Source of the DNA: an uncultured archaeon
GTDB taxonomy: Archaea > Aenigmatarchaeota > Aenigmatarchaeia > QMZP01
DNA length: 64,000 nt
Assembly: GCA_964498245.1 (NCBI GenBank)
Contig: CAZCGK010000001.1
Span: 36,581 to 100,580 of the forward strand
Reading direction: 5' to 3'
The notes below the pieces were generated by a model. It did not search any database, had not been told where the DNA came from, and saw only the letters and a list, made by a program, of their open reading frames with translations. Each line of letters starts with the position of its first letter. Position 1 is the first letter of the stretch. A program made the translations under genes and the position numbers. Of this stretch, positions 8,187 through 56,943 are shown piece after piece.

Positions 8187-8232
8187 GAATAATAATTTGA
8201 TAGCAGATACTTATATATTTTAATCAAAATGG

Positions 8233-11493: not shown

Positions 11494-11670
11494 CTGTCTA
11501 AAATTTATTGGAAATGCAGTTTTAAAAAAGCATTTGATTTACTGGAGTATAGAAAAATTTAAAAATACAAATGATAGTATATTCTTTACCCTTGACTGGT
11601 TTTGTACAGAGTATTGAAGCATTAGGGGTGTTATGATTATACATTATATAAAAATTAAGAGGTGATAGAT

Positions 11671-30865: not shown

Positions 30866-31579
30866 ATGATGGGTTCAAAACAGAGTCATAAAGAAGGAAT
30901 TATCAAAAGACTTTTTTTTAAACCACAAAAAGAAAAAAAGAAGGACTCTGCTGTTATAAAAGACATAGTTCTTTCAGGGAATGATAACAGAGCATTGACT
31001 CGGGCTCCAGAAATAGAAATAAAACCTCCGGAAAGAAAGCGTGCACATATAGAAACTGTAAAAAAGAAGGAGGAAAAGCTGGTTATAAAGCCTAAAGAAA
31101 GCGGACTTGAAAGGAGTCTAAAATTTATAGAAAAAGAAGTGGATAAGTTTGCGGAGGAAGTGTTGAAAAATAAGGAGAAAATTCAAGAACTTTTTTCTCT
31201 TCAGAAAAGATTATCCATGCTCGAAAACAGGATTTATGAAATAGAATCAAAAAGATTCGGAGAGATGGATAAGGAATTAAAAAAATTGAAGGAAATGATA
31301 GATGAAACTACAAAAAGGGAAAGAGAAGTTAACGACAAAATGGCAGCAGAGCTTAATTTAATTAAAGAAGATATCAAAGCTCTCAAATCTTTAGAAGAGA
31401 ATATAAAAAATATCGGTTTGAAAGAGATAAGAAGGGAAGTTGAGATTCTTAAGGAAAAGGCAAAATGGATGGAGGAAAATATAGAAAAATTTGATATACA
31501 GCCGCTTTATAAACTAATAAAGGATATAGAAAACAAAGTAGATTTGTTAAAAATCTCAAGCCCAATGATACTGGAATAA
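30866..31579 (+). CDS. Lys/Glu-rich coiled-coil protein (237 aa)
   Basis: Long heptad-like K/E-rich sequence. No catalytic motifs. Confidence 0.4.
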   Translation: MMGSKQSHKEGIIKRLFFKPQKEKKKDSAVIKDIVLSGNDNRALTRAPEIEIKPPERKRAHIETVKKKEEKLVIKPKESGLERSLKFIEKEVDKFAEEVLKNKEKIQELFSLQKRLSMLENRIYEIESKRFGEMDKELKKLKEMIDETTKREREVNDKMAAELNLIKEDIKALKSLEENIKNIGLKEIRREVEILKEKAKWMEENIEKFDIQPLYKLIKDIENKVDLLKISSPMILE

Positions 31580-37076: not shown

Positions 37077-37835
37077 TTAATATCCATAAGACAGAAACTC
37101 CTTGGCAAGATTTCTATAGGCATATGCACCAATGCTGTTTTTTGCATACTTTATTATGGGTTTGTGATGATTTGGTGCGCATGCAAGATCGATGTTTATG
37201 GGAATTACAGAGGAAAACACCTTGGATCCGAATCTTTCTCTTATCATTTTTTCTATGGTTCCTGAAAGCTTATTCCTTTTATCAAACATAGTAAGCACAT
37301 ATCTAATAATACTAAGTTTGGGGTTTATTTCCCTTTTTATGGCATTAACCGTTTCCATGAGCTTTTCCATCCCTTCCACTGCGAGATAGTGAACTTGAAC
37401 AGGAACTATAACACCATGAGATGCTGTAAGTGCGTTTATGGTCAGAGGATCGAGGGATGGAGGTGTATCTATGATGATGTAATCATATCCCTTCTCGTTT
37501 TTCAGTTTCTTTTTCAATTTAAACTGCATTCCAACATCGTTAAGAAGCTCTGCCCTTACCGCGTTCAATCTTTTGTCTCCGGGAACGATAAACAGATTTT
37601 TCACATCTGTTTTATATATAATCTCCTTGAGCTTTGTGTCTTCCTGAAGAAGAAGATCGCACACAGTTTTTTTCGGTTTGGTTTGAAGAAGGTAGTGAGT
37701 TGCATTGCTTTGAGGGTCTATATCTATCAGCAGGGTTTTTTTACCGAGGTCCGCGAGACACGAAGAAAGATTTACAGCAACATCGGTTTTTCCCACACCA
37801 CCTTTCTGGTTTGCAACAGTAAATATTCTTGCCAT
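37077..37835 (-). CDS. parA: ParA/Soj/MinD-family partition ATPase
   Basis: Deviant Walker A NQKGGVGKTD and DIDPQSNAT, 252 aa. Confidence 0.8.
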   Translation of the reverse strand: MARIFTVANQKGGVGKTDVAVNLSSCLADLGKKTLLIDIDPQSNATHYLLQTKPKKTVCDLLLQEDTKLKEIIYKTDVKNLFIVPGDKRLNAVRAELLNDVGMQFKLKKKLKNEKGYDYIIIDTPPSLDPLTINALTASHGVIVPVQVHYLAVEGMEKLMETVNAIKREINPKLSIIRYVLTMFDKRNKLSGTIEKMIRERFGSKVFSSVIPINIDLACAPNHHKPIIKYAKNSIGAYAYRNLAKEFLSYGY

Positions 37836-41627: not shown

Positions 41628-42596
41628 ATGGAAGATGAAATAAAATGTCCTGAATGTGGATCAAAACACATAAGATATGATCATGTAAGAGGAGAATCTG
41701 TATGTGAGGTATGCGGTTCTGTTGTTAAGGAATCAATAATCGATCTCACTCAAGAATGGAGAGCATTTGATGAAGAGCAGAGATCAAGAAGGGTGAGAAC
41801 CGGGGCGGCCCTGACACCAACGAAGCATGATGAGGGGATAACAACTGAGATAGGCAAGGGTCGTGGAGAACTTTTCAAGGTTTCCTCAAAAAAGCGTGCT
41901 CAATATTACAGAATTACCAAATGGCACAAGAGATTGATAAAATCCAAGGATAGAAATCTCTCCTTTGCTTTCTCAGAACTGCAAAGACTTATTTCTTATC
42001 TGAATCTCTCCAGGGCAATCCATGAAAAGGTTGCAAAGCTTTATCAGCACGCTGTTAACAAGGGTCTTGTTAGAGGAAGGTCAACAGAATCCATAATTGC
42101 TGCCCTGCTCTACACAACCTGCAGAGAGGAGGGTGCTCCAAGAACTCTGGATGAGATATCCAAGGCTTCTGGAATAAACAAGAGGGAAATAGGCAAAACA
42201 TACAGATATATATCCAGAAAGCTGGGTATAAGAATACTTCCAGCAAAGGCACAGGATTACATACCGAGATTTGGTTCTCTTTTAGGCTTGTCAGAAAGGG
42301 TTCAGGTTCGTGCGGTTGAACTTCTGGAAGCAGCGGGAAATTCTGATGTTACATCAGGAAAAGGCCCGATAGGTGTGGCAGCTGCTGCTCTTTACATAGC
42401 TGCTGTTCTGGATGGTGAGAAAAAAACACAGAGAGAGGTTGCGGATGCAATTGGTGTTACTGAGGTGACCATAAGAAACAGATACAAGGAAATGGTGGAA
42501 AGTTTGGGTATAAAGGATGAGATAGAGGAAAAGATTAAAGAAGAAAGTAACGAGGAAGATAATAAGGATAAGAAAGACACAGACAAAAAGGAATGA
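41628..42596 (+). CDS. tfb: Transcription initiation factor IIB (TFB)
   Basis: N-terminal Zn ribbon CPECGS...CEVCG, two cyclin-like repeats, and a C-terminal K/D/E-rich tail. Several A/T-rich TATA-like stretches lie upstream (e.g. TTTATAAAAG near 41551). Confidence 0.9.
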   Translation: MEDEIKCPECGSKHIRYDHVRGESVCEVCGSVVKESIIDLTQEWRAFDEEQRSRRVRTGAALTPTKHDEGITTEIGKGRGELFKVSSKKRAQYYRITKWHKRLIKSKDRNLSFAFSELQRLISYLNLSRAIHEKVAKLYQHAVNKGLVRGRSTESIIAALLYTTCREEGAPRTLDEISKASGINKREIGKTYRYISRKLGIRILPAKAQDYIPRFGSLLGLSERVQVRAVELLEAAGNSDVTSGKGPIGVAAAALYIAAVLDGEKKTQREVADAIGVTEVTIRNRYKEMVESLGIKDEIEEKIKEESNEEDNKDKKDTDKKE

Positions 42597-42833: not shown

Positions 42834-43286
42834 ATGATAGAAGAGGAGTACGAAATAATTCCAACTTCTCCGTTAAGAAGGCTTGAGAAGAGGATAAGCA
42901 AACTTGAGGAATCCAGTCAATCTTCCCAGATAAATAAACTTATAGAGCAGATTATTGAACTTATTAAATCCAATCAGAGGGTAATAGATGATGTGGTTAA
43001 ATCAGACAGTGAGCTTAGAAATGAGATCTCAAAGCTCCCGGGAAAAATAGATGCGCTTGTTTCAATGATGAAAGAGTTCATAGAGATGTTGAAGGCTTCC
43101 GCGGCAGAGGAAACCACAACAGAGACATCCAAAGAGATTGTTGAACCCATGATTAAAAAAATTGATGAGCTTATAGAACAGAACAGACAGAATCTGGAGG
43201 CAAGTAAAGCGATACTTACAAATTTAAGTGCAATAGATAATAGATTGAAAAGAATATATATGCAGTATTCATCCACGGTGAGGTAA
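42834..43286 (+). CDS. Coiled-coil protein; first gene of the pilus locus (150 aa)
   Basis: Heptad-rich, no TM. Co-oriented and tightly spaced with the pilin genes. Confidence 0.4.
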   Translation: MIEEEYEIIPTSPLRRLEKRISKLEESSQSSQINKLIEQIIELIKSNQRVIDDVVKSDSELRNEISKLPGKIDALVSMMKEFIEMLKASAAEETTTETSKEIVEPMIKKIDELIEQNRQNLEASKAILTNLSAIDNRLKRIYMQYSSTVR

Positions 43287-43329
43287 ATAATATAAACCTG
43301 AGATTATTAAAAAATAAAGGAGGAAGAAA

Positions 43330-43785
43330 ATGAAAAAGGGAATAACGCCCATCATTTCGGTAATAGTTCTTTTGCTTATAACAATTGCTCTTGCAGGAGC
43401 TGCATGGACATTTTTAAATCAGTATCTTTCAGGTACCACTGGCAAGAATCTTCAGATGATAGATTCTTACTGTCAAGGTGGCACAACAGCAAAGATTGTG
43501 CTCAAGAATGTAGGGACCGAAGCGATAAACATAGGGAACTGTAATGTAGGAATGTCCGGAACAGAGACATCATGTGGAGACGTTATAGTTGTAAGAACAG
43601 ATGGAGGAGGGCTTAATGGTTCTGTCTTAACCCCAAACACAGGTGGAAATACCATCCCTTCTCAGGGGCTTGCAACGTTCACTGATAATAACTGTACGGT
43701 GACCGGAACACCAAAAACATGCATTTACAGATTTGTTGTAGGAACTCTTGGTGCAGTACAAGCAATAGTAACGTGCTCTGGCTGA
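43330..43785 (+). CDS. Type IV pilin-like protein (class III signal peptide)
   Basis: MKKG|ITPIISVIVLLLITIALAGAAW: a prepilin peptidase site plus a hydrophobic N-terminal helix. A GGAGG RBS lies upstream. Confidence 0.7.
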   Translation: MKKGITPIISVIVLLLITIALAGAAWTFLNQYLSGTTGKNLQMIDSYCQGGTTAKIVLKNVGTEAINIGNCNVGMSGTETSCGDVIVVRTDGGGLNGSVLTPNTGGNTIPSQGLATFTDNNCTVTGTPKTCIYRFVVGTLGAVQAIVTCSG

Positions 43786-43804
43786 GTAAACAGCTTTTGA
43801 AAGT

Positions 43805-44419
43805 ATGAAGAAAGCCCAAACCCAAACAATATCCGTAGTTTTAATGACAGGGATAATTATTAGCCTTGCTGGTGCGGCATATCTTTGGGGAAAACCACTA
43901 ATAGAAAAGAGAATGACTATATCAGACTTTACAAATGCGCTGGATTTTGTTCTCGATCTGGATAAAAAAATAGTGGATGTTGTGAATTCAGGTTCTGGTT
44001 CCTTTGAGATAGATATACCTAAAGGCACTTTGAGAGTTGTTCCGTATGGTGCGAACGACCCAGATAATAATTCAATAATATATGAAATTCTGGTTAGCCA
44101 GCCAATTGCATATAATGCAAGTACAATACTCATTAAGACCGAAAGTGATGATCCTGTAGGCATGTATGGAGAGGCTGAACCGAGAATTATAACCCTCAGT
44201 ACACTCTCTACTGGAGGAAATCTGTATCAATTGAGATTTAAAATACACTATCGAGAGCTCATCACAAAAACAAAGGGTTACAGGATAGCTTTAGATTCGG
44301 TAAGCAAGAGTGGAAACAAAAGGATTACAGTTACGTTCGACAAAAAAGAGATACAGCCTCTTCAGGCAAGCAATAATGGAGATTTAATACTCAATTATGT
44401 AAAAATTACCGTAATTTAA
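43805..44419 (+). CDS. Type IV pilin-like protein (class III signal peptide)
   Basis: MKKA|QTQTISVVLMTGIIISLAGAAYLWG. Confidence 0.7.
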   Translation: MKKAQTQTISVVLMTGIIISLAGAAYLWGKPLIEKRMTISDFTNALDFVLDLDKKIVDVVNSGSGSFEIDIPKGTLRVVPYGANDPDNNSIIYEILVSQPIAYNASTILIKTESDDPVGMYGEAEPRIITLSTLSTGGNLYQLRFKIHYRELITKTKGYRIALDSVSKSGNKRITVTFDKKEIQPLQASNNGDLILNYVKITVI

Positions 44420-44450
44420 AAATTTATCACCAAACACACAAATCTAATTT

Positions 44451-44897
44451 ATGAGAAAACTAAAAGCCGCTTCATTTATATTTGAACAGGTTATGCTTTT
44501 TTTAATGGGTGTTGTGATATTTACTGCGTGTTTTTTCGTTTTTCAGAGTTACCAATCGTATTTTGAAGAAATAAGTGTAAGAAACCAGCTTAACGAAATA
44601 AAGGATGCTGTGATCTCTTATATAATCAAGCTTGCTGAAGGCGGGAAGGATACCATCTCATACATAAAAATAAAATTCTGCAGACCGCCGGGCAGTAACT
44701 GTTTTCCTTATAAAGTGGGAAATGAAGATTATCTCATATCACTTTCCGATGATGGTGTAAATGTTACTGCTATTTCATCTGGTATCACTGTACATTCTGA
44801 TGTATATTTACTCAATATTTCTCTCGATGGTACTGTTTACAGTTCAGCAGGAGATTTTGTGATTTATAAGAGTGGAAACAAAATTATAATAAAATAG
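44451..44897 (+). CDS. Pilin-like / pseudopilin-like protein with bacterial-type Glu+5
   Basis: MRKLKA|ASFIFEQVMLFLMGVVIFTACFFVF: cleavage after Ala would place Glu at +5. Confidence 0.45.
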   Translation: MRKLKAASFIFEQVMLFLMGVVIFTACFFVFQSYQSYFEEISVRNQLNEIKDAVISYIIKLAEGGKDTISYIKIKFCRPPGSNCFPYKVGNEDYLISLSDDGVNVTAISSGITVHSDVYLLNISLDGTVYSSAGDFVIYKSGNKIIIK

Positions 44898-44908
44898 GAA
44901 GGGAAAAT

Positions 44909-46663
44909 ATGAGCGGATATCTATCTGCAAGAAAAATACTAAAAGTCCTGAGAAGGGGTTGTATAGCACTTGAGAAAAAAAGAATAGAAAAGGGGGAAAT
45001 GCAAGCTCCATTTCCTTACATGGTTTTTCCAGCCACGGTCACCACAACCGAGACCCAGCACCTTAAAAAGGAACCCGAAGGAATAGAACTTACCCATGTA
45101 ACCACATCAGGCTTATTCAATCTTTCCATTACACAGGAAATGGAAAAAAAGGATATTCAGAGTATTGATATTACCTATAATCTTATACCTCGCTCTCCAA
45201 AAAAGGGTGAGAAGGTTTTTGCCTATGCACACATCCACTGGGATAAAAATCGTGGAGAACTCATTTATGATGTAGTTGAACCTCCTTTATCTCAACATGA
45301 CAAGGAGCTGATAGAAAAACTCAAAAGAGAGCTTGAAGAGAGACTGGATGTTAATTTTTATAAAATAGGTGTGATAAAGGCTAAAGACCTTCTCAGGGAA
45401 GAAGTGTTAAACATCCTTTCGGAGGAAGGTGGTTTGAGTGATGAGCAAAAAGAGGTACTTCTCTACTATATAGAGAGGGATATAATCGGTTTGGGAAAAA
45501 TAGAACCATTAATGAACGATCCAAATATAGAGGATATATCGTGTGATGGAGTCAACATTCCTATCTATGTTTATCACAGGGATACCAGAATAGGTTCTGT
45601 AAAGACTAATGTCATATTTGAAGATGAAGAAGAGCTCAACACATTTGTAATAAAACTTGCACAGAAATGCAGAAAAACGATAAATATAGCGGAACCTTTG
45701 CTTGATGCAGCGCTTCCAGATGGTTCAAGGGTTCAGGCAACCTTGGGCACGGATATAGCGAGAAAGGGCTCTAACTTTACCATAAGGAAATTCACGGAAG
45801 AGCCTTTAACTCCCATCCACATGTTAAAATACGGGACACTGGATTCCACTCAGCTTGCGTACCTGTGGCTTGCTGTGGAAAACGGGCAATCTATACTGAT
45901 CTCTGGTGGAACTGCTACTGGAAAGACATCCTTACTAAATGCTCTTTCACTTTTCATCAAACCCAGTCTTAAGGTTGTAAGTATAGAGGATACACCCGAA
46001 CTCAGGCTTCCTCACCCTCACTGGATACCGGAGGTTGCAAGAACACCACTTTCAGAAAAGGAAAGGCACGGGGAGGTTACGCTTTTTGATTTGCTCAAGT
46101 CTTCATTAAGACAGAGACCTGATTACATAGTTATGGGAGAGGTTAGAGGAAAGGAGGCTTTTGTTCTCTTTCAGCAAATGGCTACCGGACACCCAAGTCT
46201 TGCAACAATACATGCTGCTTCTATTTCACAGCTTATTGACAGGTTGACGACTCCACCGATATCCCTTCCACCAACATTACTTGAAAATATAAATATAATT
46301 GTATTTTTGGTCATGTCAAGAATAGGAGAGAAGTATGTAAGAAGGGCCAACACCATAATAGAGATTGTTGGTATTGAAAAAGACAGACCAGTAACAAAGG
46401 ATGTGTTCAAATGGGATGCAAGGAGAGACAGGTTTGCTATTGTAGGCAAGTCAACTGTTCTAAGGAATATAGCATTAAAGCTTGGAATGGATGAAAAAAA
46501 GATAAAACAGGAATTGATAAGGAGAAAACTTGTATTAGAATGGATGCTGATCGAAGGTATCACGGATTATGTTGAGTTCGCAAAAATTGTGAGTAGATAC
46601 TATTCTAACCCTCAAAGCATTCTTAATCTCATCAAGAATAAATATCCTTTTTTAGCTTTATAG
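44909..46663 (+). CDS. Type II/IV secretion system ATPase (FlaI/TadA/VirB11/GspE family)
   Basis: Walker A SGGTATGKTS, Asp box, Walker B DYIVMGEVRG, His box TGHPSLATIHA. 584 aa. Confidence 0.85.
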   Translation: MSGYLSARKILKVLRRGCIALEKKRIEKGEMQAPFPYMVFPATVTTTETQHLKKEPEGIELTHVTTSGLFNLSITQEMEKKDIQSIDITYNLIPRSPKKGEKVFAYAHIHWDKNRGELIYDVVEPPLSQHDKELIEKLKRELEERLDVNFYKIGVIKAKDLLREEVLNILSEEGGLSDEQKEVLLYYIERDIIGLGKIEPLMNDPNIEDISCDGVNIPIYVYHRDTRIGSVKTNVIFEDEEELNTFVIKLAQKCRKTINIAEPLLDAALPDGSRVQATLGTDIARKGSNFTIRKFTEEPLTPIHMLKYGTLDSTQLAYLWLAVENGQSILISGGTATGKTSLLNALSLFIKPSLKVVSIEDTPELRLPHPHWIPEVARTPLSEKERHGEVTLFDLLKSSLRQRPDYIVMGEVRGKEAFVLFQQMATGHPSLATIHAASISQLIDRLTTPPISLPPTLLENINIIVFLVMSRIGEKYVRRANTIIEIVGIEKDRPVTKDVFKWDARRDRFAIVGKSTVLRNIALKLGMDEKKIKQELIRRKLVLEWMLIEGITDYVEFAKIVSRYYSNPQSILNLIKNKYPFLAL

Positions 46664-46667
46664 GTGC

Positions 46668-47546
46668 TTGAAGATGAAAAAAATTGCATTGATGCTGTTT
46701 GGGGATATAGTAAAACGGTACGTGCCTTATTTCGATACACTCAAAACCAATCTGAAAAAAGCTGGAATAAAGACGCCTGTGCATGAATATTTGTGTAATA
46801 TACTGTTCTATTCGCTTATAACTCTGATTGTATCCATGATTGCAGGGTCTTTTTTTGTTACGCTTCTCATAGGCAATGTGATACCGATTGCAACAGCTGC
46901 AGATATGATATTCGCATATACCTTTTCAATACTACTGTCCATCATTCTTTCAGGAATGATATTTTTATTAGGTTATTATTATCCTTCACTGCTCGCTAAA
47001 AACATGAAAAATAAAATAGACAGATCTCTTCCCTTTGCTGTTTTTTACATGGCAACATCAGCTTCCTCAGGCATAAATCCTGTGGAGATTTTTAAGGCTT
47101 TGGCAAAAAAAGGTGGAATAATAGGCAAAGAAGCGGAAAGGATATATAACGATGTTACATCTCTTGGTATGGATCTTCCCACAGCTATAGAAAGAGCAGC
47201 AAACAGAACACCTTCAGAAATGTTTTCTGATCTCTTGTGGGGAATGTCCTCGGTTATAACCACAGGAGGGGATATTGAAAAATACCTGTCTGGTAAAACA
47301 CGAGTGTTTATGAACCATTACAGAAGATCGCTTAACGAGTATGCAAAAACAATCTCTCTATATACAGAGATATACATTACTCTTGTGATAATAGGTTCGC
47401 TTTTTTCCATAGTTTTAACAGCCATGATGACCCCTTTAGCAGGAAATGTTTTAATGCTTCAAACCTTTCTTGTATTCTTTGTCATACCTTTGGTTTCAAT
47501 AGGGTTTATCATTCTTGTGAGGGGTATATCTCCATCAGAGGTGTAG
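46668..47546 (+). CDS. FlaJ/TadC-like platform protein, N-terminal half (split gene)
   Basis: T2SS-F domain PFAVFYMATSASSGINPVEIFKAL...LPTAIERAA flanked by TM helices. Confidence 0.65.
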   Translation: MKMKKIALMLFGDIVKRYVPYFDTLKTNLKKAGIKTPVHEYLCNILFYSLITLIVSMIAGSFFVTLLIGNVIPIATAADMIFAYTFSILLSIILSGMIFLLGYYYPSLLAKNMKNKIDRSLPFAVFYMATSASSGINPVEIFKALAKKGGIIGKEAERIYNDVTSLGMDLPTAIERAANRTPSEMFSDLLWGMSSVITTGGDIEKYLSGKTRVFMNHYRRSLNEYAKTISLYTEIYITLVIIGSLFSIVLTAMMTPLAGNVLMLQTFLVFFVIPLVSIGFIILVRGISPSEV

Positions 47547-47550
47547 ATCA

Positions 47551-48468
47551 ATGATAAAAATTGCAAGAACAACAATCGCGCTTATCGGTATTGGAGTATT
47601 GCTGATAGGTACAGGTTTGGTGATAGGGGATAGCGGTGTTTTGGGAAATCTCGTGATTATGGCTGTAATAATAAATACGTTTCCGTACTTCCTTAACAGA
47701 TACCTTCGTTATCTGTGGATAAAAAGCGCTGAAGAACACTTTCCAAATTTTATAAGAGATCTTGCAGACTCCGTTCGTTCGGGCATGGCACTTCCAGAGG
47801 CAATAAGTGTTGTCAGCAGATCGAACTACGGGAAGCTTACAGAAGAGATTGTAAAAATGAATAACAGGCTTTCCTGGGGAACACCCTTTCTCCGTGCTTT
47901 GGAAATAATGGAAAACCGTCTAAGGGATTCCAAAATAATATCCGAGGCACTGAAAATAATAAGGGAATCATATGAATCCGGGGGTAATATAGTTTCAACT
48001 CTGGATTCTATCTCTAATGACATTCTCATGCTTAGAGAGGCAGAAGCTGAAAGGCTTTCTATGGTCAAACAGCAAATAATGATAATGTACGGAATATTTG
48101 TTATCTTTCTTGCAATCTCTATCATTATAATAAACATAATGGTTCCTATGATGTCATTCCAGCCTGCTCTGGGAGAAGAGAGTATGGGATTTATTTTTAA
48201 AAATCCCTGTGAGGGTGGGATTTTCTTTCCATGCTCACTCTTTGCAGCGATTAATGCAGTTTTGGGTGTTCCTGAGGGAGGCATAGCTCCATATTATATT
48301 GCACTGTTCTTTACCACCGTGATGATGGAAGGATTATTTATAGGTTTGATAGCAGGTCAGATAGGTGAGAATTCGATAACAGCGGGATTCAAACATTCAT
48401 TAATAATGATGTTTGCAGCATTTGGAGTTTTCCTGTTTTTAATAAAATTGGGTATGATGGCAGTTTAA
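47551..48468 (+). CDS. FlaJ/TadC-like platform protein, C-terminal half (split gene)
   Basis: Second T2SS-F domain FIRDLADSVRSGMALPEAISVV... plus TM helices. Begins 4 nt after the previous stop. Confidence 0.65.
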   Translation: MIKIARTTIALIGIGVLLIGTGLVIGDSGVLGNLVIMAVIINTFPYFLNRYLRYLWIKSAEEHFPNFIRDLADSVRSGMALPEAISVVSRSNYGKLTEEIVKMNNRLSWGTPFLRALEIMENRLRDSKIISEALKIIRESYESGGNIVSTLDSISNDILMLREAEAERLSMVKQQIMIMYGIFVIFLAISIIIINIMVPMMSFQPALGEESMGFIFKNPCEGGIFFPCSLFAAINAVLGVPEGGIAPYYIALFFTTVMMEGLFIGLIAGQIGENSITAGFKHSLIMMFAAFGVFLFLIKLGMMAV

Positions 48469-48524: not shown

Positions 48525-49445
48525 ATGGGTCTGTGTATTATAGGTCAGGAAAAAAGTGAAAGCAATATAAAACTCTTGGAAGAGGCTAAAAAGGTTTTTG
48601 GTTCTGTGTTTTTTGTGCCGATAAACAGCATAAGGATAGGTCTGACTGATAAATTTTCTATATTTTACAGAACCACAGATCTTTTCAAATTCAAGGCTGT
48701 GCTTCCAAGAATATCAAGAAGCTATCATTCTTATGCTTATCAGCTTCTCTCGCTTTTTCCTCCAGATACATTCATGCCCATAAAACCCATAAGCTTTCTT
48801 TTATCTCAAGAGAGATTCTTTCTTTTAACAGTGTTGAGAAAAAGGGGTATACCTACCTTGAACCTTCATCTTTCCAGATCCACAAAAGCTGTAGAGAAGG
48901 TAATAGAGAATAAGGAGATATATCCTGTTATAATAAGAACACCTGAAAAGAAAACCGGTATTGTTGTTAAAAATAAGACAGAAGCAAAGACCGTGATAGA
49001 TGCGCTAACGCATCTGAAAAAGAATATTTTAATCGAAGAGGTTGTAAAAAACATGATATCTGTATATGTAGCTGATCCGTATGTTCTTGCTTCTGTTAAG
49101 AAAAAAGCCAAGGATATAGATATTGTTTTTGGAGAGGGTGAAATGAAAAATCAGAAAATAAATATAGAAACAGAACAGCTTGCATTGGATGCTGCAAGGG
49201 CTGTGGAGGCACAGATAGCAAGGATTGATATCTTTCCCGGAGAAACACCAAAGATTGTAAATATAGATCTCAATCCAGATCTCATAAAACCAAGTAAGGT
49301 CACAGGAATAAATCTTACTCAGAAAATCATAGAGGCTGTGGCAGAAAACTACAGGGAGCATCAGAAAAAACCACTGTTAATGAAATTCTTAGAGGATGCA
49401 AGATCGGTTGTGAAGGATGTGCTTAAAGGTAAACAGCTTCTTTAA
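48525..49445 (+). CDS. Hypothetical protein with weak ATP-grasp-like features
   Basis: IYPVIIRTPEKKTGIVVKNKTEAKTVIDAL / ILIEEVV loosely resemble the central region of RimK-type ATP-grasp proteins, but the canonical motifs are not clearly present. Confidence 0.3.
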   Translation: MGLCIIGQEKSESNIKLLEEAKKVFGSVFFVPINSIRIGLTDKFSIFYRTTDLFKFKAVLPRISRSYHSYAYQLLSLFPPDTFMPIKPISFLLSQERFFLLTVLRKRGIPTLNLHLSRSTKAVEKVIENKEIYPVIIRTPEKKTGIVVKNKTEAKTVIDALTHLKKNILIEEVVKNMISVYVADPYVLASVKKKAKDIDIVFGEGEMKNQKINIETEQLALDAARAVEAQIARIDIFPGETPKIVNIDLNPDLIKPSKVTGINLTQKIIEAVAENYREHQKKPLLMKFLEDARSVVKDVLKGKQLL

Positions 49446-50521: not shown

Positions 50522-52312
50522 TTATTTGCTCATACTTTCCACTATTCTTCCGTAAGCAGGTCTGGTTACAAGAACGCCTACAAGAACGCCTACAATAGTG
50601 GTTATTGCAAAACCCCGGAGAAAACCTATTCCACCGAGCAGTGGTGTCATTGCGGCTATGGTTGTGGCAGCTGCACCGAAGATTATGAAGAATGCTCTTT
50701 TTATGCTCTCTTTAATTGAATATATTTTTCTTTCCCTTCCTTTCATAAGAGTTTCATCTGCTATTATAATCATATGATCCATTCCTGTACCTATTGCCGC
50801 AAGGATACCGCCTATTGCTGGTAAATCTATTGTCCATCCTCCCATAAGGCCTAAAAGAGGAATGAGCAATGCTCCTATCCATGCATACACATCTACTTCA
50901 TACTTCTTCCACCATGCGGTTGAGATTATTATGAAATTTATGATCAGGATTATGGTCCAGATAAAATAATCATTAAGCGCAGCTATGCCCAAAATTATAA
51001 TTATTTCTGAAAGACCCACAAGAACCATGGGTATCGCGATTTTTAATTTTCTGTATCTTAAAAACACCAGCAAAATCACTGCGCATCCAGCAAGCAAAGC
51101 CGCATGCAACGTTGAAATGAAGAAATCCTTGCCAAGTACCGGAGAGATTATGCTTATGGATGCAATTTCAAGCCCTGTTGGTAAAGCACCTGATCGAAGT
51201 ATAGCTTGAAGCCTCAGTTTTTCCTCCACTGCTTCTTCCATAGTTTGTCTCCATCCTGTTATTTGAGGTGTATCAACAACCTTTCCGCTGAGATCAGATG
51301 ATATTCTCAGATCAGAAACAAGTTTTCCATCGAGATACAGGAAAATTTTAGATGTGAGGTACCTTTCACCTGTTTGGAGGTCTATATAGCTCGGCACACC
51401 GCTTGTTACATCTGCAAATCTCTTTGCTCCATCGTGCGATATAAGAACTGCAAAATAGAATCTGTAACCATTTGATGCTGGTACTACAGCAGACCTTTGC
51501 GGATCTGTGTATACAAGCTCTATATCATCACCTTCATAAACCTTTGCCAAGAAAAGAGCTTCGTTTGCGGTTGAATTGATGTACTCAAATTCTATGTTCT
51601 GGAGGACAAATTTTTCTCTTGGATCAATAACTGAATTGTTCACCACCACGCTTCCGTTGGCAAGCGTTGTAACATCATAGAAATTTGAACCGAGCTGGAT
51701 GCTTCCCTTTCCGTTGGTAATGCTCACGGGCTTGGAAACCTTTGCTTCGAACTTTCCTTCTGTTGATAGGAGTTCTTCTATTACATTACCCTTAACCCCA
51801 GCCATTTCTATCTGCACATAATAATTCCCATCTATTCCTCTTACAGGATAAAAATGCATTTCCTTCAGACCATAAAGATTTGCACGTGTTTGCAGGGTTG
51901 ATATTATCTGATCTATCATATCTTTTGTTGCGTTTTCCTTTGGTTTAAGCAAAATCCTTGTTCCTCCTTTCAGGTCAAGACCAAAATCAATATTTGTTCT
52001 TTCTATATCAACAACATATATTCCTAAACTCTCATTTACATTTAATGTATATCTTTTTCCGTTCGCTATCAATGTGATGTTTCCTGATATATTTGAAATC
52101 ATTTTATTCCAGGATTCCACATTCTTTACTTGTTTATCATTGAGTTGTGTTATTATCATTCCCTGTTCCAGAACACCCCTTGCTGGAGAATCCTTTGCAA
52201 TATAGGCTATCTCAACACCGTTTCTGCCATAGGGATATGCTTTCATGCCTATTGCGAGAATCGAACCGAATACTATTGTTGCGAGTATGACAACACGCCA
52301 GTAGTTGAGCAT
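50522..52312 (-). CDS. secD: Protein-export membrane protein SecD
   Basis: Large periplasmic domain followed by a 6-TM C-terminal domain typical of archaeal SecD. 596 aa, immediately after secF. Confidence 0.75.
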   Translation of the reverse strand: MLNYWRVVILATIVFGSILAIGMKAYPYGRNGVEIAYIAKDSPARGVLEQGMIITQLNDKQVKNVESWNKMISNISGNITLIANGKRYTLNVNESLGIYVVDIERTNIDFGLDLKGGTRILLKPKENATKDMIDQIISTLQTRANLYGLKEMHFYPVRGIDGNYYVQIEMAGVKGNVIEELLSTEGKFEAKVSKPVSITNGKGSIQLGSNFYDVTTLANGSVVVNNSVIDPREKFVLQNIEFEYINSTANEALFLAKVYEGDDIELVYTDPQRSAVVPASNGYRFYFAVLISHDGAKRFADVTSGVPSYIDLQTGERYLTSKIFLYLDGKLVSDLRISSDLSGKVVDTPQITGWRQTMEEAVEEKLRLQAILRSGALPTGLEIASISIISPVLGKDFFISTLHAALLAGCAVILLVFLRYRKLKIAIPMVLVGLSEIIIILGIAALNDYFIWTIILIINFIIISTAWWKKYEVDVYAWIGALLIPLLGLMGGWTIDLPAIGGILAAIGTGMDHMIIIADETLMKGRERKIYSIKESIKRAFFIIFGAAATTIAAMTPLLGGIGFLRGFAITTIVGVLVGVLVTRPAYGRIVESMSK

Positions 52313-52313
52313 A

Positions 52314-53162
52314 TTATGACCTCCTTTTCACATAGAGTTTGATTATTGTTGCGTTTTGAAGCCAGGTATTGATCAGATCTATTACAAGACCGATGATAAG
52401 AACCGAAGCTATCTGGATTAGGATTCTCGAAGAAGAGAGTAAGATCACTGCGGTCAGTGCTGCAAGAGTTGTTCCTGTCATTGTTATACCGGTCTTAAAT
52501 GCGGATTTTACTCTCTCATCTATTTCCATTTCCTCTTTTAGAACTCTTGTGGTAAGGAGTATATCTGTGTCTATGGAATAACCTATGAGCATTAGTATTG
52601 CCGCAAAGCTGGCCAGAGACATGGGTATGCTCAAAATCTGCATGAAAGCAAGGGTAACGATGATATCGGATATAGCTGCAAGCATGACAGCAAATGAGGG
52701 AACAAACGTGCGGAAGATGAAAAAAACTATCAATCCCATGAAAATAAATGCTATGCTTATGCTTATTTGTGCCTGGCGCCAGAAGGATTCTCCTAAAGAT
52801 GGACCTATGGTTTCTATTGAAAAATCACTCACATCAATTCCTATGGTTTTAATCCTTTCTATGATCTGGGTTGCATTTTTATTGTGTTCTGTTTCTATCA
52901 GAATCGTATGGCCAGAAAGGCTTCGAAGTTCTCTTATTAAAACATTGCCTTCCTCACCGAGAACGGTTTCTATTCTTTTTATATCTGGAGGTGTTGGGGT
53001 GTTTATGGTTATTAACATTCCTCCCTTTAATTCTATTGATCTTTCAAACCAGTCACCTGTGGATATATAATGGTTTACAAGTATAAAGATCGAAAAAAGT
53101 AAGAGAGCTACAGGAATGGCCAACGAAATTACATATTTCCAGTTTTCTAATGAGATTTTCAT
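52314..53162 (-). CDS. secF: Protein-export membrane protein SecF
   Basis: SecF-type 6-TM domain (SIETIGPSLGESFWRQA..., IGYSIDTDILL). 282 aa. Confidence 0.75.
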   Translation of the reverse strand: MKISLENWKYVISLAIPVALLLFSIFILVNHYISTGDWFERSIELKGGMLITINTPTPPDIKRIETVLGEEGNVLIRELRSLSGHTILIETEHNKNATQIIERIKTIGIDVSDFSIETIGPSLGESFWRQAQISISIAFIFMGLIVFFIFRTFVPSFAVMLAAISDIIVTLAFMQILSIPMSLASFAAILMLIGYSIDTDILLTTRVLKEEMEIDERVKSAFKTGITMTGTTLAALTAVILLSSSRILIQIASVLIIGLVIDLINTWLQNATIIKLYVKRRS

Positions 53163-53178: not shown

Positions 53179-56100
53179 TTAGAAGGATGAGAACTCCCAC
53201 AGTTTTTTCTGTTTTTCCCTTTTGAAAAATTTCTTTATTCTTTCCTTGAAGTTTTTGGTGTAGGAGTATTCCAAAGATCTGTGTTTCACGTAGTCTCCTG
53301 TATAAGCCAGCGGTCCTGAAGGTATGTTTTCTTTATCGGACTTCGATGCTCCTTTTCTTGTAATTCTCAGGGATTTCATTCTTGTTGTGAATCTTTTTAT
53401 AAGTTCAGAACTGTCTTTTACCGGTTTGTATCCGTATTTTGGATGATATCCTTTATGGGAGAGGAATATATAATAAACGAAAAATATCACAATTATTGCT
53501 ATAAAGATTATGAGTGTCCATATTAACCATTCAGAGGTTCCTTTTACAGTTGTGCCTCCTTTGATTTTTTGAAAGGGTTTCAGAAGTTCCTTTGTTGCAT
53601 TAAGTTTATCCCCTATCAGGGAAATCAGGGATTGTGCGGTAACATAGTCCTTGTTCGTAAGAGAAACGTTTGCTTTTTTCAGCAAATCCTCTATCTCTGT
53701 TATCAAACTCTTCGCCTTTGTGATATTTGTGTTGTTTTCAAACTCCTTTTCGGATTTTAAAGATTCAAGAAGTGATTTCAGTGACTCAAATTCTTCAAAA
53801 TAATTTAAGAGTGTACTGTTTATCTCCTCTATTGTTTCATCCGTGGGTATAATCTTGAGGGTGAAGGCCTTTTCGTCACTTATATCCTCATTTCCTTTCT
53901 TGTATGCTTTGAATGTTCCTATATAATTACCAACCTCTATATCTGATTGTATTGACATGTTTATGGTGAATTCTGTTTCTTCTCCGATAGCAAGGGTTTT
54001 CTCTTCAGGTGTAACAGTAAAGCTTTCAATATATGGAACCACAACGGTTGCTTTTGCTGTGAGACTCAAATTTCCTGTATTCTTTACCTTTACTTTTGCC
54101 AAAACCCATTCACCTGGGTGTGCAATAAGCTCTGAGGGATAATCGGTTATTTCAATTGCATAAGGTGAAAATGATGAGGAGGGTTGGTTTGTGCTTGTCT
54201 GATCTGTGGTTTGTGTGGTTGATTGGTTTCCTGAATCAAGGACCGTGAAGGTGTAGTCAGCATAGTTATAGTAGAGCCTGCTGTCTGCATCCCTTCCTGT
54301 GACATTTATATAGAAATGTTTAGTTCCTGTGGATGTTGCTTCAACCTTTATACCTATGCATGCTGTTGAGTTGCTTTTTCCAGCACCAAGTGAGGTTATG
54401 TTCCAGCAGTGACCCCATGATATGAGAGAAATGGTCACACCAGAGTTTGAATCTGTCCAGTATTTTATCTCGATATTGCTTGCGGGTTTGTTTCCTGTAT
54501 TGGATATTGTGATATTGACTATTTGATATGCGCTTGAACCACCCTGAAGATCAAGGTCGTAAAGGCCTATGGGATTTGAACCCAGTCTTGGGGCTGTTAG
54601 GTTGAAGGTTAAGCTTGATATTCCTGTGTAGTTGTTCTTTGTGATGTTCAGTTTGAGTGTATATATTCCTGGCTGGATGAAACCATTTGCCAGATTTGGG
54701 GCTGTTAGGTTAAACCAGTAATAACCTGAGGAGTTGCCTGTAGCGGAGAGTGTGTAGGTTCTTCCTGAGCTTGGAGAGGTTTCGGAAATCTCGAAGTTCA
54801 GTGATATGTTCAGATCTGTTGCTGGCTCACCGTTTGCGTAAGTCACCGAAATATTGAAAAATACCTGTTCATTGGGATCAACCTTTGCTGGATAGGAGGA
54901 GTTTATCCACGAAGCCCAGCCATAGGAGTTTATAACCGTGATATTGTAACCCACTATTGTTTCGTTATTGAGGATATTGTTGGAGGTTGTTGCCTCGCTC
55001 TCATTTGTTGAAATCTCGGCTGTGATTGTGTGAGAGCCGAATGTAACATAGCTTGTGTTTATCACATCATAGAAGATTACAGTGTATTTTGAACCGTTAG
55101 TGAGACTCTCTGCAGGTATTTCATATGTTCCGTTTATAACTCTATTTGTATATCCATCCCATTTCAGGACCAGAGTTACATTATTGCTTATATTGAAGTC
55201 TCCTGTGTTATTAACTGTAACTGTAATGGTTATCTTGCTTCCTTGAGTTGTGCGATTGTCATTCGGGGATACGCCTGTGGAGTTCCAGATTATGGACTCT
55301 ATTGCAAGGTCTGGGTAAACACCGAATACTGCAAAGGCTGTTGCTGTATAATTCGCATCAGAGCAGTTGATCGTGATGTTATGGGTGGTGCCTGGTGTTA
55401 AACCTGTATGAATTAAGCTGTATGGGGTTGCGTTTGCAACAGAAGCATTGTAGGAATAGTTTCCATCTATATAGATTGAACAGTTCATTGTAGGGGCAAC
55501 GGCATCCGTGGCTGTGAAGCTTATGTTAATGTAGCTCCTGCTTATGTTCGTGTTGTTTACCGGGGAGGTTATGGTTACGGATGGAGCTGTGGTTTCGATT
55601 ATTGCAATCCAACTTCCGTTCCAGCCGAGATTTCCGAAGGTGTCATTCACATAAACAGAATATGTATAAATACCGTCCGTGAGGTTTGTTAGATTATACC
55701 AGCAGTACCTTTCGGTCTTGTTTATATTCATGGTATAGTTTGTTTGGTTGTTCCACTCAAGCAGGCATGAATCCGGATTGACCTCAGAGAATGTTATGTT
55801 TATTAAAATCCAGGTTTTGGCTGTATAGGAGTTGTTTGCAGGGGTTGGTGGGGAGGGGATTATGTTTGTGGGAGGGAAATCGTCTACATCTATTGTTATA
55901 TTTCGTATCTCGGATTGATTTTCGTTGGCGCCATCGGAACACGTTATCCACCAGAGGTATGTTCCGTTAATGAGGGGTGTATTAGCCGTTATAGTTGTGG
56001 GTGTATCGTTCAAAACAGAGGAGTTGGTTCCATATGCATCACTATCTGTTCCATTCTTCAAGTAAAGTGTGCATGATAATAGAGATGCGAAATTGTCTGT

Positions 56101-56943
56101 TACATTGAATGTGAAAGAAGGCGTTCTTGTTGAATTTATTACCGTGTTATTTGCAGGGGACTGGAGATTGATTAAGGGATATTGTCTGTCTAAGGTTACA
56201 AACCATGTTCCGTTCCAGCCTGTGTTTCCTGAAGTATCATTTATGTATACTGAATAATAATGAATGCCTTCGCTCTGATTCGTGGCATTGAAGTAGCAGG
56301 CATAGTTTCCGAGCATGGTCATGGTGTAGTTTGCTTGGGTTCCGTTGTTGAGTTCGAGTATGCATGTATCTGGATTCACCTCAGTAAAGGTTATGTTTAT
56401 TTCGAAGTAATCAGCATTGATAACCGAATTGTTTGCAGGGGTTGGTGGGGAGGGGATTATATTTGCAGGGGGAATTGTATCCAAAACCGTGATTGTGAGA
56501 TTGGTAGAGTTTATCGAGTTATCCGTGAATTTTACGGTTAGTGTGAAATTGTATGTGCCTGTTCCTGAAGGAACGGAAACATTGAACAGAAAATATTCTT
56601 CTGTACCGTTCTGGATAAATCCTGAAGAGGTTGTATTTGTCCATGTTAGGTTTGGGGAGACCGTATAAAAGGATGTGTCTGCAGCAGAGGTTTGGTTGGA
56701 TTCAGAGATAAAGGAAAAGCCTGAAGGGAGTGTTATGTTGACCTCTGTAATATTTAGTTGAGGATCCGTGTTATTAACCGTGAAATTGAGCTGCTCGGTT
56801 GTTCCGGATTCCAGTGTTGTATTTGTGATCTGTGAAGAGAAATTGGATGCATGAATTGAGACAAGGAAAGTTAAAATTGTCATTAAAATGCTAACAGTTA
56901 TTATTCTTCCTCTCTTAGCCAATCCTTTCATCAGCTTCCCCAC
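53179..56943 (-). CDS. Giant cell-surface glycoprotein candidate (S-layer-like; 1254 aa) with a signal peptide, internally duplicated domains, a C-terminal TM anchor and a cytoplasmic tail
   Basis: Signal MKGLAKRGRIITVSILMTILTFLVSIHA. Dozens of N-x-S/T sequons. Duplicated domain PP(A/T)NIIPSPPTPANNS...NITF(T/S)EVNPD(T/S)C(I/L)LE...GNxGWNG(T/S)W, with matching DNA repeats around 55840 and 56440. TM WLIWTLIIFIAIIVIFFVYYIFL near the C-terminus. Confidence 0.65.
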   Translation of the reverse strand: MGKLMKGLAKRGRIITVSILMTILTFLVSIHASNFSSQITNTTLESGTTEQLNFTVNNTDPQLNITEVNITLPSGFSFISESNQTSAADTSFYTVSPNLTWTNTTSSGFIQNGTEEYFLFNVSVPSGTGTYNFTLTVKFTDNSINSTNLTITVLDTIPPANIIPSPPTPANNSVINADYFEINITFTEVNPDTCILELNNGTQANYTMTMLGNYACYFNATNQSEGIHYYSVYINDTSGNTGWNGTWFVTLDRQYPLINLQSPANNTVINSTRTPSFTFNVTDNFASLLSCTLYLKNGTDSDAYGTNSSVLNDTPTTITANTPLINGTYLWWITCSDGANENQSEIRNITIDVDDFPPTNIIPSPPTPANNSYTAKTWILINITFSEVNPDSCLLEWNNQTNYTMNINKTERYCWYNLTNLTDGIYTYSVYVNDTFGNLGWNGSWIAIIETTAPSVTITSPVNNTNISRSYINISFTATDAVAPTMNCSIYIDGNYSYNASVANATPYSLIHTGLTPGTTHNITINCSDANYTATAFAVFGVYPDLAIESIIWNSTGVSPNDNRTTQGSKITITVTVNNTGDFNISNNVTLVLKWDGYTNRVINGTYEIPAESLTNGSKYTVIFYDVINTSYVTFGSHTITAEISTNESEATTSNNILNNETIVGYNITVINSYGWASWINSSYPAKVDPNEQVFFNISVTYANGEPATDLNISLNFEISETSPSSGRTYTLSATGNSSGYYWFNLTAPNLANGFIQPGIYTLKLNITKNNYTGISSLTFNLTAPRLGSNPIGLYDLDLQGGSSAYQIVNITISNTGNKPASNIEIKYWTDSNSGVTISLISWGHCWNITSLGAGKSNSTACIGIKVEATSTGTKHFYINVTGRDADSRLYYNYADYTFTVLDSGNQSTTQTTDQTSTNQPSSSFSPYAIEITDYPSELIAHPGEWVLAKVKVKNTGNLSLTAKATVVVPYIESFTVTPEEKTLAIGEETEFTINMSIQSDIEVGNYIGTFKAYKKGNEDISDEKAFTLKIIPTDETIEEINSTLLNYFEEFESLKSLLESLKSEKEFENNTNITKAKSLITEIEDLLKKANVSLTNKDYVTAQSLISLIGDKLNATKELLKPFQKIKGGTTVKGTSEWLIWTLIIFIAIIVIFFVYYIFLSHKGYHPKYGYKPVKDSSELIKRFTTRMKSLRITRKGASKSDKENIPSGPLAYTGDYVKHRSLEYSYTKNFKERIKKFFKREKQKKLWEFSSF

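Follow-up and report, generated by a model that had tools for sequence, protein, structure and literature searches.

The locus described here raises the question of what kind of filament an archaeon of the Candidatus Aenigmatarchaeota could assemble with seven adjacent genes, when public annotations of such genes read 'FlaI/FlaJ/FlaG', and how this machine relates to the pili already described in archaea and bacteria. The locus occupies positions 42,834 to 48,468 of a 64-kb stretch of contig CAZCGK010000001.1 (GenBank assembly GCA_964498245.1); this whole stretch is referred to below as the window, and all positions are counted from its first nucleotide. Results of our analysis indicate, with good although not complete confidence, that the seven genes form one operon of this DPANN lineage, and that it encodes a type IV pilus machine without a role in motility. 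Its genes and its candidate promoter are the following:

42834-43286, plus strand: gene 1, coiled-coil protein, 150 amino acids (aa), no transmembrane (TM) segment
43330-43785, plus strand: gene 2, prepilin 1, 151 aa, starts MKKGITPII
43805-44419, plus strand: gene 3, prepilin-like protein 2 (pilin 2), 204 aa, starts MKKAQTQTI
44451-44897, plus strand: gene 4, prepilin-like protein 3 (pilin 3), 148 aa, starts MRKLKAASFIFEQ
44909-46663, plus strand: gene 5, assembly ATPase, 584 aa
46668-47546, plus strand: gene 6, platform N-half, 292 aa
47551-48468, plus strand: gene 7, platform C-half, 305 aa
42800-42809, plus strand: TATA-like element TATATATATT, about 25-34 nt before the first ATG, read from the sequence

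The list of open reading frames (ORFs) matches exactly the seven plus-strand genes that an earlier reading of this DNA (the original prediction) had placed here. The gaps between them are, in operon order, 43, 19, 31, 11, 4, and 4 nt, and an AT-rich spacer of 237 nt separates the TFB gene (41628-42596) from the operon. The element TATATATATT is the putative archaeal promoter of the operon, and it would imply a leaderless mRNA or one with a short leader. A scan for bacterial-type sigma-70 promoters and intrinsic terminators, which is not applicable to archaea, gave counts no higher than expected from shuffled sequence. On the 3' side the operon is followed by a RimK-like ATP-grasp gene and then by a convergent FAD-dependent reductase-like gene (FAD_binding_3). 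Since the TFB gene lies upstream and the RimK-like and convergent genes downstream, both ends of the operon are inside the window.

The same arrangement is found in related genomes. Our sample consisted of the best 80 of 236 ATPase relatives, with one genome per species scanned and 49-71% identity in the ATPase; nearly all these loci are titled Candidatus Aenigmatarchaeota and one Nanohalarchaeota. Gene families delimited in them by ORF calling and BLAST follow the conserved order coiled-coil protein, pilin 1, pilin 2, pilin 3, ATPase, N-half, C-half. The coiled-coil family is present in 53 of the 80 loci, pilin 1 in 39, pilin 2 in 72, pilin 3 in 74, the ATPase in 79, the N-half in 73, and the C-half in 68, the absences falling mostly at contig ends.

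Assembly ATPase and the archaellum question

The product of gene 5 matches the Pfam T2SSE family (1.7e-32), and all four nucleotide-binding boxes that the original prediction had ascribed to it were located in its sequence: Walker A GGTATGKT (aa 333-340), Asp box EDTPEL (360-365), Walker B PDYIVMGEVR (404-413), and His box GHPSLATIHA (427-436). Its best NCBIfam match is the FlaI model NF058587, on which it scores 415 bits against a cut-off of 550; the scores on the TadA model TIGR03819 (172 bits, cut-off 373) and on the BasE model (229 bits, cut-off 1000) are lower still, and that on PilB3_C is borderline (24.8 bits, cut-off 27). Among sequences of the PDB it is nearest to Archaeoglobus AfGspE (2OAP, 393 bits), followed by Sulfolobus FlaI (308) and Caulobacter CpaF (173).

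A neighbour-joining distance tree (501 columns, 200 bootstraps, rooted on three CpaF sequences) recovered the Aenigmatarchaeota ATPases as monophyletic in 99.5% of bootstraps, and AfGspE with four haloarchaeal PilB proteins as a clade in 100%. The former are sister to the latter in 68%, to the exclusion of FlaI of S. acidocaldarius, whereas a grouping with FlaI appears in 3.5%. The original prediction had proposed such a phylogeny against FlaI, the archaeal pilus ATPases AapE and UpsE, and bacterial TadA; the part of it that is answered is that the protein groups with AfGspE and haloarchaeal PilB and not with FlaI, in a tree of AfGspE, haloarchaeal PilB, one FlaI, and CpaF references. By these sequence comparisons the ATPase is a member of the GspE/VirB11/FlaI superfamily, probably of the archaeal PilB type.

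Scans of the operon, and Pfam scans of further ORFs of the window, detected no archaellin, FlaF, FlaG, FlaH, FlaCDE, or FlaX domain, and the gene families that recur near the ATPase gene across the 80 loci include no archaellum accessory gene. The absence of FlaH, FlaF, FlaG, and FlaCDE, on which the original prediction had based its preference for a pilus, thus holds for an operon that is bounded inside the window, and its distinction between pilus and archaellum is borne out by the FlaI score, the gene content, and the tree.

The public 'FlaI/FlaJ/FlaG' annotations would imply a reduced archaellum, that is, a rotary swimming organelle stripped of most accessory genes. It is in keeping with such an organelle that the FlaI model is the best NCBIfam match of the ATPase, that both platform halves match FlaJ models best, that the JGI name for C-half homologues is 'flagellar protein FlaJ', that FlaG, FlaI, and FlaJ have been listed in Aenigmarchaeota (PMC8407114), and that, according to the accessible text of a further report, archaella exist in some DPANN (Nanobdella) (PMC11104419). 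However, the ATPase falls short of the 550 bits that the FlaI model demands, and on the FlaJ models the halves stay far under cut-offs of 400-570; the accessory components are missing from the operon, the scanned window, and the conserved families alike, while all known archaella, that of the smallest genome included, have all seven components (PMC4858521); and the ATPase joins FlaI in only 3.5% of bootstraps. The FlaI score, the missing accessory genes, and the bootstrap value together rule out an archaellum, and even a stripped-down form of it is very improbable. For Aenigmarchaeota, Li et al. 2021 listed these genes as a 'subset of archaellum proteins' (PMC8407114); this label is not supported by the cut-offs, the gene content, or the tree. 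Annotation as a pilus and not as an archaellum matters for the reading of DPANN genomes in general, given the labels that are in public use.

The platform and its two genes

As stated by the original prediction, each of the two adjacent genes downstream of the ATPase gene carries one T2SSF domain: Pfam finds exactly one per gene, with E-values of 2.4e-15 in the N-half and 2.2e-19 in the C-half. The predicted layout of the N-half, the true start of which is probably the ATG at 46674, is two TM segments, a cytoplasmic T2SSF domain (aa 127-250), and two further TM segments; that of the C-half is two N-terminal TM segments, T2SSF (aa 67-194), and about four to five TM segments. In every NCBIfam FlaJ, UpsF, and BasF model, gene 6 corresponds to the N-terminal half and gene 7 to the C-terminal half; the N-half aligns to FlaJ model positions 18-249 of 555, and the C-half to positions 326-475 of 555 and to positions 191-380 of 465. 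A sequence search of the PDB with each half gave no match.

The division of one FlaJ/TadC-type protein in its middle, as the original prediction had put it, is corroborated by profiles of Aenigmatarchaeota half-platform orthologues scored on three fused haloarchaeal PilC proteins of 674-701 aa. Over residues ~22-340 the N-half profile scores 111-126 bits, with at most 16 bits on the C half; over residues ~433-694 the C-half profile scores 63-64 plus 16-26 bits, with at most 14 bits on the N half (111-126 and 63-64 bits being the values of the best single matched stretch). The two proteins are thus collinear with the N and C halves of fused PilC, and the break point comes after the final TM pair of module 1 and ahead of the TM pair that opens module 2.

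At the junction, the TAG stop of the N-half is followed by 4 nt and then by the ATG of the C-half in another frame, and a GAGGTG Shine-Dalgarno-like motif lies inside the 3' end of the N-half gene before this ATG, which suggests translational coupling of the two genes. With ORFs only 4 nt apart and jointly collinear with fused PilC, one may ask whether a frameshift or nonsense error of assembly or sequencing has cut a single FlaJ/TadC gene in two, and the original prediction had advised inspection of positions 47546-47551 for this reason. The answer comes from the related loci. A stop separates the halves in all 69 of the 69 loci that hold both, each from an independent genome; the spacing differs among these loci, and the relative frame is +1 in 36, +2 in 15, and 0 in 18. 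Separate halves in all three relative frames exclude a shared sequencing error. Moreover, 323 homologues of the C-half were found, of which the 120 listed are all half-length (288-321 aa, with a single PF00482), and the C-half gene has its own ATG and Shine-Dalgarno-like motif. An artefact is therefore so improbable that it can be neglected, and the encoding of the platform by two genes, N-half and C-half, is genuine and natural. A natural heterodimeric platform of this kind could be a point of comparison for the working of PilC/FlaJ-type platforms.

The platform of the operon is not the only one in the window, although the original prediction had taken the operon for the only assembly machinery there; the operon does hold the only ATPase of this kind. 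The further candidate and its neighbour are:

28509-30590, plus strand: divergent fused two-module platform homologue, 693 aa, eight predicted TM segments
30866-31579, plus strand: coiled-coil-like ORF, 237 aa, after the gene at 28509-30590

The 693 aa protein has no Pfam, NCBIfam, or PDB sequence match. Alignment of its family profile by hhalign gave 97.2% probability with the N-half profile (residues 69-324) and 95.5% with the C-half profile (residues 404-591), and Foldseek matched its AlphaFold2 model (pLDDT 87) locally to the cytoplasmic domain of EpsF, 2VMB, the superposition having a probability of 0.99, a TM-score of 0.70, and a deviation of 2.8 Å. The family comprises 935 clusters at 50% identity, nearly all of 620-780 aa, with members in Aenigmarchaeota, in Parvarchaeota, where a few are named TadB or GspF-domain protein, and in one Thermoplasmatota archaeon. 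Profile alignment and predicted structure point to a highly divergent fused paralogue of the FlaJ/TadC/PilC-type platform, without an adjacent ATPase gene. Together with the coiled-coil-like ORF it possibly represents the platform-plus-CCP part of 'Locus 2', as far as the accessible text of Hamm et al. 2024 describes it.

Prepilins, accessory protein, and other genes of the window

The N-terminus of prepilin 1 is MKKG/ITPIISVIVLLL, where the slash marks the cleavage site, and a single TM segment spans aa 8-26. The cleavage motif and the hydrophobic helix of a class III signal peptide are thus both present, and the orthologues keep the motif as [KR]KG/ITP[IV][IV]A, a classical PibD/FlaK-type site. 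The protein passes the NCBIfam model of the archaellin/pilin N-terminal domain, TIGR02537, with 39.8 bits (cut-off 20); the Pilin_N score of 19.4 bits is below its cut-off and matches to UpsA and UpsB are weak. A GGAGG Shine-Dalgarno motif is located 8 nt 5' of the gene. We infer that prepilin 1 is the major pilin of the machine and PilA-like.

Pilin 2 starts with MKKA/QTQTISVVL, and its orthologues share K[GA]/Q-x-Q-x-[IV]-S followed by a strongly conserved ...YxWGxPLIEKR within the N-terminal 35 aa. The copy in the window matches DUF7289 only below threshold (E=0.0098), whereas 19 of 42 orthologues match this family (best 3.8e-9). Family scans gave no match for the window copy of pilin 3 (MRKLKA/ASFIFEQ, with Ala at +1); DUF7266 is matched by 27 of its 43 orthologues (best 5.9e-7), one of which, P0130, when tested singly, scored 28.4 bits against a cut-off of 27.6. 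Both proteins are therefore probably minor-pilin-like, pilin 2 as a DUF7289 member and pilin 3 as a DUF7266 member, memberships that come through the orthologues. The AlphaFold2 model of pilin 3 (pLDDT 83.9) has an N-terminal helix (residues 2-63) followed by eight strands, which is the 'lollipop' architecture of pilins; Foldseek against the PDB gave no significant match to this model (best E 0.046), and the sequence profile of pilin 3 matches the archaeal filament subunit 8FK7 weakly (E 0.012). The profile of pilin 2 yielded no meaningful match. For pilin 3, a single-sequence search returned only two proteins and a profile search 20, the named ones all from Aenigmatarchaeota.

The motif of pilin 3 is [KR][GA]/Q-x-x-[VI]-F-E-Q, and in alignment A1, which comprises 43 sequences, its Glu (preprotein residue E12) has a conservation of at least 90%. 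This residue had been placed at +5 by the original prediction and read as a hallmark of bacterial pilins, and neither point can be upheld. Archaeal prepilins are cut after the G or A that follows K or R (PMC4371748), which puts the Glu at +6, even with the site of the original prediction (KLKA/ASFIFEQ), and at +6 in the 43 orthologues as well. Nor is the signature specifically bacterial, since Gln at +1 together with Glu at +5 is documented in EppA-dependent archaeal pilins (Nair et al. 2013; Pohlschroder & Esquivel 2015; PMC3875500, PMC4371748). Pilin 2 itself has Gln+1, and so have most orthologues of pilin 3.

Further pilin-like genes were noticed outside the seven-gene set. A gene of ~172 aa (family 7), weakly DUF7287-like and with the motif KG/Q-x-x-x-E-[FY], that is, true Gln+1/Glu+5, lies 3' of the C-half gene in 40 of the 80 loci, and after it, in 25 loci, there is a pilin-like gene of ~440 aa with Glu+6; examples of these downstream genes are L043:7248-7715, L056:10396-10923, and L066:9287-10630. 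Neither of them adjoins the operon in this window, where the RimK-like gene stands instead. In the window itself, seven consecutive minus-strand ORFs at 3004-8700 (155-619 aa) mostly have N-termini resembling class III signal peptides (e.g., MKKAQTEVV, MRAQTSMIL, MKSQAGIMEY, MKKGAFQLS), and next in line is an ORF longer than 1002 aa (2-3007, minus strand) with a signal-peptide-like start, which runs off the window. No Pfam match was obtained for the ORFs of this cluster, and no match to the gene families around the operon in the 80 related loci, by BLAST or with HMMs of families 7, 9, and 11. For the suggestion of the original prediction that the pilus machine may also service this prepilin-like cluster, these searches speak neither for nor against.

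For the coiled-coil protein encoded by gene 1, neither a TM segment nor a signal peptide is predicted, and Pfam and NCBIfam gave only weak matches of coiled-coil type. Orthologues in the equivalent position occur in the 53 loci mentioned above, among them the Nanohaloarchaeota-labelled L070. The protein may be an accessory or scaffold subunit, or one of the proteins named 'CCP' in pilus loci of DPANN archaea; the lack of an export signal favours a cytoplasmic scaffold or regulator over the surface attachment that has been proposed for DPANN CCPs.

These parts suggest the following working of the machine. The three prepilin-like proteins would enter the membrane and be trimmed by a class III signal peptidase whose gene would lie beyond the window. 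A hexameric ATPase of the PilB type would then dock on the heterodimer of N-half and C-half, which may stand in for one two-domain FlaJ/PilC, and engage its cytoplasmic T2SSF domains. Movements of the platform driven by ATP would pull pilins out of the membrane and add them to the filament, which the DUF7289-like and DUF7266-like minor pilins may prime or tip. Glu+6 of pilin 3 may have the role of Glu5 in bacterial pilins, which neutralises the N-terminal amine of an adjacent subunit. The soluble coiled-coil protein would be a conserved accessory component, either a scaffold or regulator or an attachment-type 'CCP'.

Type IV pili are the leading candidates for the finding and holding of hosts by ultrasmall DPANN archaea. 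By analogy with archaeal pili and with episymbiotic bacteria, as treated in the accessible text of PMC9894109, the function of the present machine is most likely attachment to a surface or to a host cell. Alternatively, it might build a short pseudopilus or a structure for DNA uptake or of the bindosome kind, which would serve the scavenging of nutrients or DNA, instead of a long adhesive pilus. The core parts are the same in bindosomes and competence pili, and the ATPase does score 229 bits on BasE; type IV pilus genes are reported, in the accessible text of PMC10133366, to be necessary for natural transformation of M. maripaludis; a 2026 preprint proposes filament machines functionalised by binding proteins with class III signal peptides; and the genomes of DPANN archaea are metabolically reduced. 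Set against this, the operon has no gene of a substrate-binding protein with a class III signal peptide, of a DNA-binding protein, or of a translocase, the BasE score is far under the cut-off of 1000, and the major pilin is canonical, PilA-like, and provided with a strong ribosome-binding site. We regard a scavenging structure as rather unlikely and an attachment pilus as the better reading of the operon.

Several points weigh against the interpretation of the region as an operon of a non-motility pilus. The window copies of pilins 2 and 3 are below every Pfam cut-off, the ATPase tree contains one FlaI and no Epd, Aap, Ups, or Bas references, with a bootstrap of 68% at its key node, and the coiled-coil protein has no export signal, which leaves a role of it in surface attachment unsupported here. 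Finally, no peptidase A24, FlaK, PibD, or EppA turned up in those ORFs of the 64-kb window that were scanned with Pfam, so that processing of the prepilins depends on a gene outside it. Class III signal peptidases are often encoded away from the pilus locus.

The remaining genes of the window are largely of archaeal housekeeping type: thermosome, HMG-CoA reductase, diphthamide synthase, RuBisCO, CysRS, RtcA, S15, CTP synthase, Hef-like helicase, TFB, and SecDF. The RuBisCO large-subunit gene (21725-22951, minus strand; Pfam catalytic domain 1.2e-84) is probably of the archaeal form III type, which acts in nucleotide salvage in DPANN. Two genes of the RimK ATP-grasp family are present in the window, at 20551-21426 (minus strand) and 48525-49445 (plus strand). 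The latter, considered as a member of the pilus system because of its position, was rejected, as it adjoins the operon in only ~9 of the 80 loci and at varying positions; it is probably unrelated to the pilus. Close to the SecD/SecF genes (50522-53162), two minus-strand genes at 53179-56943 and 60460-63999 encode proteins of 1254 and 1179 aa with immunoglobulin (Ig)-like, CARDB, and FlgD_ig domains, which are candidate surface proteins of S-layer or adhesin type. The minus-strand gene at 24387-25055 encodes a protein of 222 aa that is essentially one GGDEF diguanylate-cyclase domain (Pfam 3e-32; TIGR00254 116 bits, cut-off 37). Signalling domains of cyclic di-GMP are unusual in archaea, and this gene could result from horizontal transfer or belong to a mis-binned region of the contig.

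Comparison with known systems

In its ATPase and accessory pilins, the operon is similar to euryarchaeal clade 2 or 'system 2', to which the PilB3/PilB4-type loci of Halobacteria belong (PMC4858521). Common to both are a PilA-like pilin and the DUF7289 and DUF7266 families, with DUF7287 in addition through the downstream gene present in 40 of the 80 related loci; an ATPase that is sister to AfGspE and haloarchaeal PilB and borderline for PilB3_C; and platform halves that score 111-126 and 63-64 bits on haloarchaeal PilC. In the haloarchaeal locus used for comparison (L082, on a plasmid of Halobaculum halophilum), a Pilin_N pilin, an ATPase with PilB3_N and PilB3_C, and a fused PilC are encoded, and PilC is followed by DUF7287, DUF7288, DUF7261, DUF7266, and DUF7289 proteins. 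The profiles of the Aenigmatarchaeota pilins score 24.5, 23.2, 6.5, and 8.9 bits on their partners in this locus and at most 3 bits on its other pilin-like proteins; the first value is that of the prepilin 1 family on the Pilin_N pilin (others at most 3 bits), and the second that of pilin 2 on the DUF7289 protein (others at most 2.5 bits). The accessory pilin-like set and the PilB3-like ATPase that characterise system 2 are thus recognised through the orthologues, the copies of the window being sub-threshold.

The operon departs from system 2 in several respects. The haloarchaeal platform is fused (674-701 aa in three loci with intact PilC) and here it is split, so that the single fused platform given for system 2 in the 2026 preprint discussed below is not found in the operon. 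Haloarchaeal ATPases reach up to 989 aa, with N- and C-terminal extensions, compared with 584 aa here, and their pilin-like genes are downstream of the platform gene, whereas they precede the ATPase gene here. Furthermore, the haloarchaeal locus has no coiled-coil gene, and its DUF7266 protein no Glu+6. Two platform genes are not foreign to such loci: Makarova et al. 2016 described a pair of TadC components for clade 1 and a pair of tadC-like genes for many loci of clade 2, besides a coiled-coil accessory protein in one halobacterial system (PMC4858521).

The closest published description is that of Hamm et al. 2024, who reported two conserved type IV pilus-like loci with CCP genes in cluster-2 DPANN, Aenigmarchaeota included; according to the accessible text, Locus 1 comprises PilA, 'FlaF', CpaF, and TadC near a chaperonin gene, and proteomics of Ca. 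Nanohaloarchaeum antarcticus revealed proteins of the loci (PMC11291902). The coiled-coil gene, the PilA-type and other filament genes, the CpaF/PilB-type ATPase gene, and the TadC-type platform genes of our operon agree with that description. A thermosome gene is found ~3.8 kb upstream of the ATPase gene in 48 of the 80 related loci; in contrast to Locus 1, the thermosome gene of the window (11662-13314) is 30 kb away from the operon. The 'FlaF' label of Locus 1 was not reproduced here by Pfam or NCBIfam scans, and the accessible text makes no mention of a split platform, of the DUF7289/DUF7266 identity, or of the Glu+6 motif. The operon fits Locus 1 of cluster-2 DPANN, matched by that part of the published description and not gene family by gene family.

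The designation 'Tad-like' given by the original prediction stands for the architecture of the platform and fails for its sequences. As in the Tad/Flp (type IVc) system, the ATPase gene is followed by two adjacent platform genes with a single T2SSF domain each, and pseudopilin-like proteins have an acidic residue in the N-terminal helix. However, the ATPase is far nearer to AfGspE (393 bits) than to CpaF (173 bits) and stays well below the TadA cut-off (172 against 373 bits), and bacterial TadB and TadC receive only 5-24 bits from the half-platform profiles. A short Flp pilin with G/xxxxEY is missing, pilin 1 being 151 aa long, with KG/ITPII and without Glu5/Tyr6, and the operon lacks TadZ, secretin, TadD, TadG, and any gene of ParA/MinD type, no secretin domain having been found. 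In the window, the nearest gene of the latter type (37077-37835, minus strand) is ~5 kb upstream of the operon on the opposite strand and encodes a ParA/MinD-family ATPase (AAA_31 3.8e-53; archaeal MinD model 75 bits, below cut-off). ATPases of the MinD/FleN-like kind have been proposed as euryarchaeal pilus partners and as relatives of TadZ.

The order of the halves differs as well. Here the N-half gene comes first, whereas TadB, the product of the first gene, was assigned as the C-terminal module by Denise et al. In our hhalign comparison the C-half is nearer to TadB than to TadC (91 vs. 63) and the N-half has no preference; with five Tad loci, the TadB and TadC profiles both align best to the C half of haloarchaeal PilC, and the N/C assignment of Denise et al. 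was not reproduced. The Tad system is thought to derive from an archaeal pilus, and the two-gene, single-T2SSF platforms of Epd and Tad have been read by Denise et al. 2019 as the result of fission of a two-domain ancestor (PMC6668835). In the preprint of Sivabalasarma & Albers (2026), a split platform marks system 1, present in methanogens and DPANN, and two platform proteins occur also in subsystem 4A of some DPANN (10.64898/2026.04.22.720090).

It is therefore conceivable, if doubtful, that the operon encodes an Epd-like or 'system 1' pilus, the archaeal sister of Tad, and shares a single ancestral platform fission with EpdJ/EpdK and TadB/TadC. The Epd pilus of Methanococcus maripaludis (EpdL ATPase, EpdJ/EpdK, EppA) also has two platform genes, each of them essential there, and a two-gene platform with single T2SSF domains is the stated hallmark of Epd, of Tad, and of system 1, which is reported in DPANN. 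Pilins 2 and 3 and their orthologues mostly start with K[GA]/Q, and pilin 3 is acidic at +6, near the +5 position of the K-G/Q pilins of Epd; family 7, in half of the loci (40 of 80), has the Gln+1/Glu+5 pattern of EppA substrates; and the affinity of the C-half to TadB agrees with the C-terminal module of Denise et al. This comparison uses features of system 1 taken from publications.

Against a shared fission speaks, first of all, the ATPase, which is far nearer to AfGspE and FlaI than to CpaF/TadA and in the tree joins AfGspE and haloarchaeal PilB. The accessory pilins are of the DUF7289 and DUF7266 (and DUF7287) families, which are also those of a haloarchaeal locus with a fused platform, and the N-half is equally near to TadB and TadC. 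The major pilin, of 151 aa with a globular part, is not of the short Epd/Flp type, the Epd-type pilin lacking a globular domain, and Glu is at +6 in pilin 3. The order ATPase, N-half, C-half differs from epdJ-epdK-epdL, and EppA-like and FlaH-like genes were not found in the operon or the scanned ORFs of the window, nor a TadZ-like gene in the operon.

The evidence for a classification is thus mixed, the ATPase and accessory pilins pointing to system 2, and the split platform and acidic K-G/Q pilins to system 1/Epd. As a tentative explanation of this combination, the split of the platform may be an independent fission in Aenigmatarchaeota and related cluster-2 DPANN, which took place inside a machine of the system-2 type, at the same boundary between modules as in Epd and Tad, with the order N then C kept. 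We hold this possibility at less than even chances. If it were true, two platform genes would be a recurrent, convergent state and not a marker of the system 1/Epd/Tad clade, and the same genome would have kept the divergent fused paralogue (28509-30590) beside the split platform. Whichever classification holds, the machine is an archaeal pilus of a described kind: the type of locus, the split platform, and the pilin motif with an acidic residue have all been published, and the operon is one more example of them and introduces no new principle.

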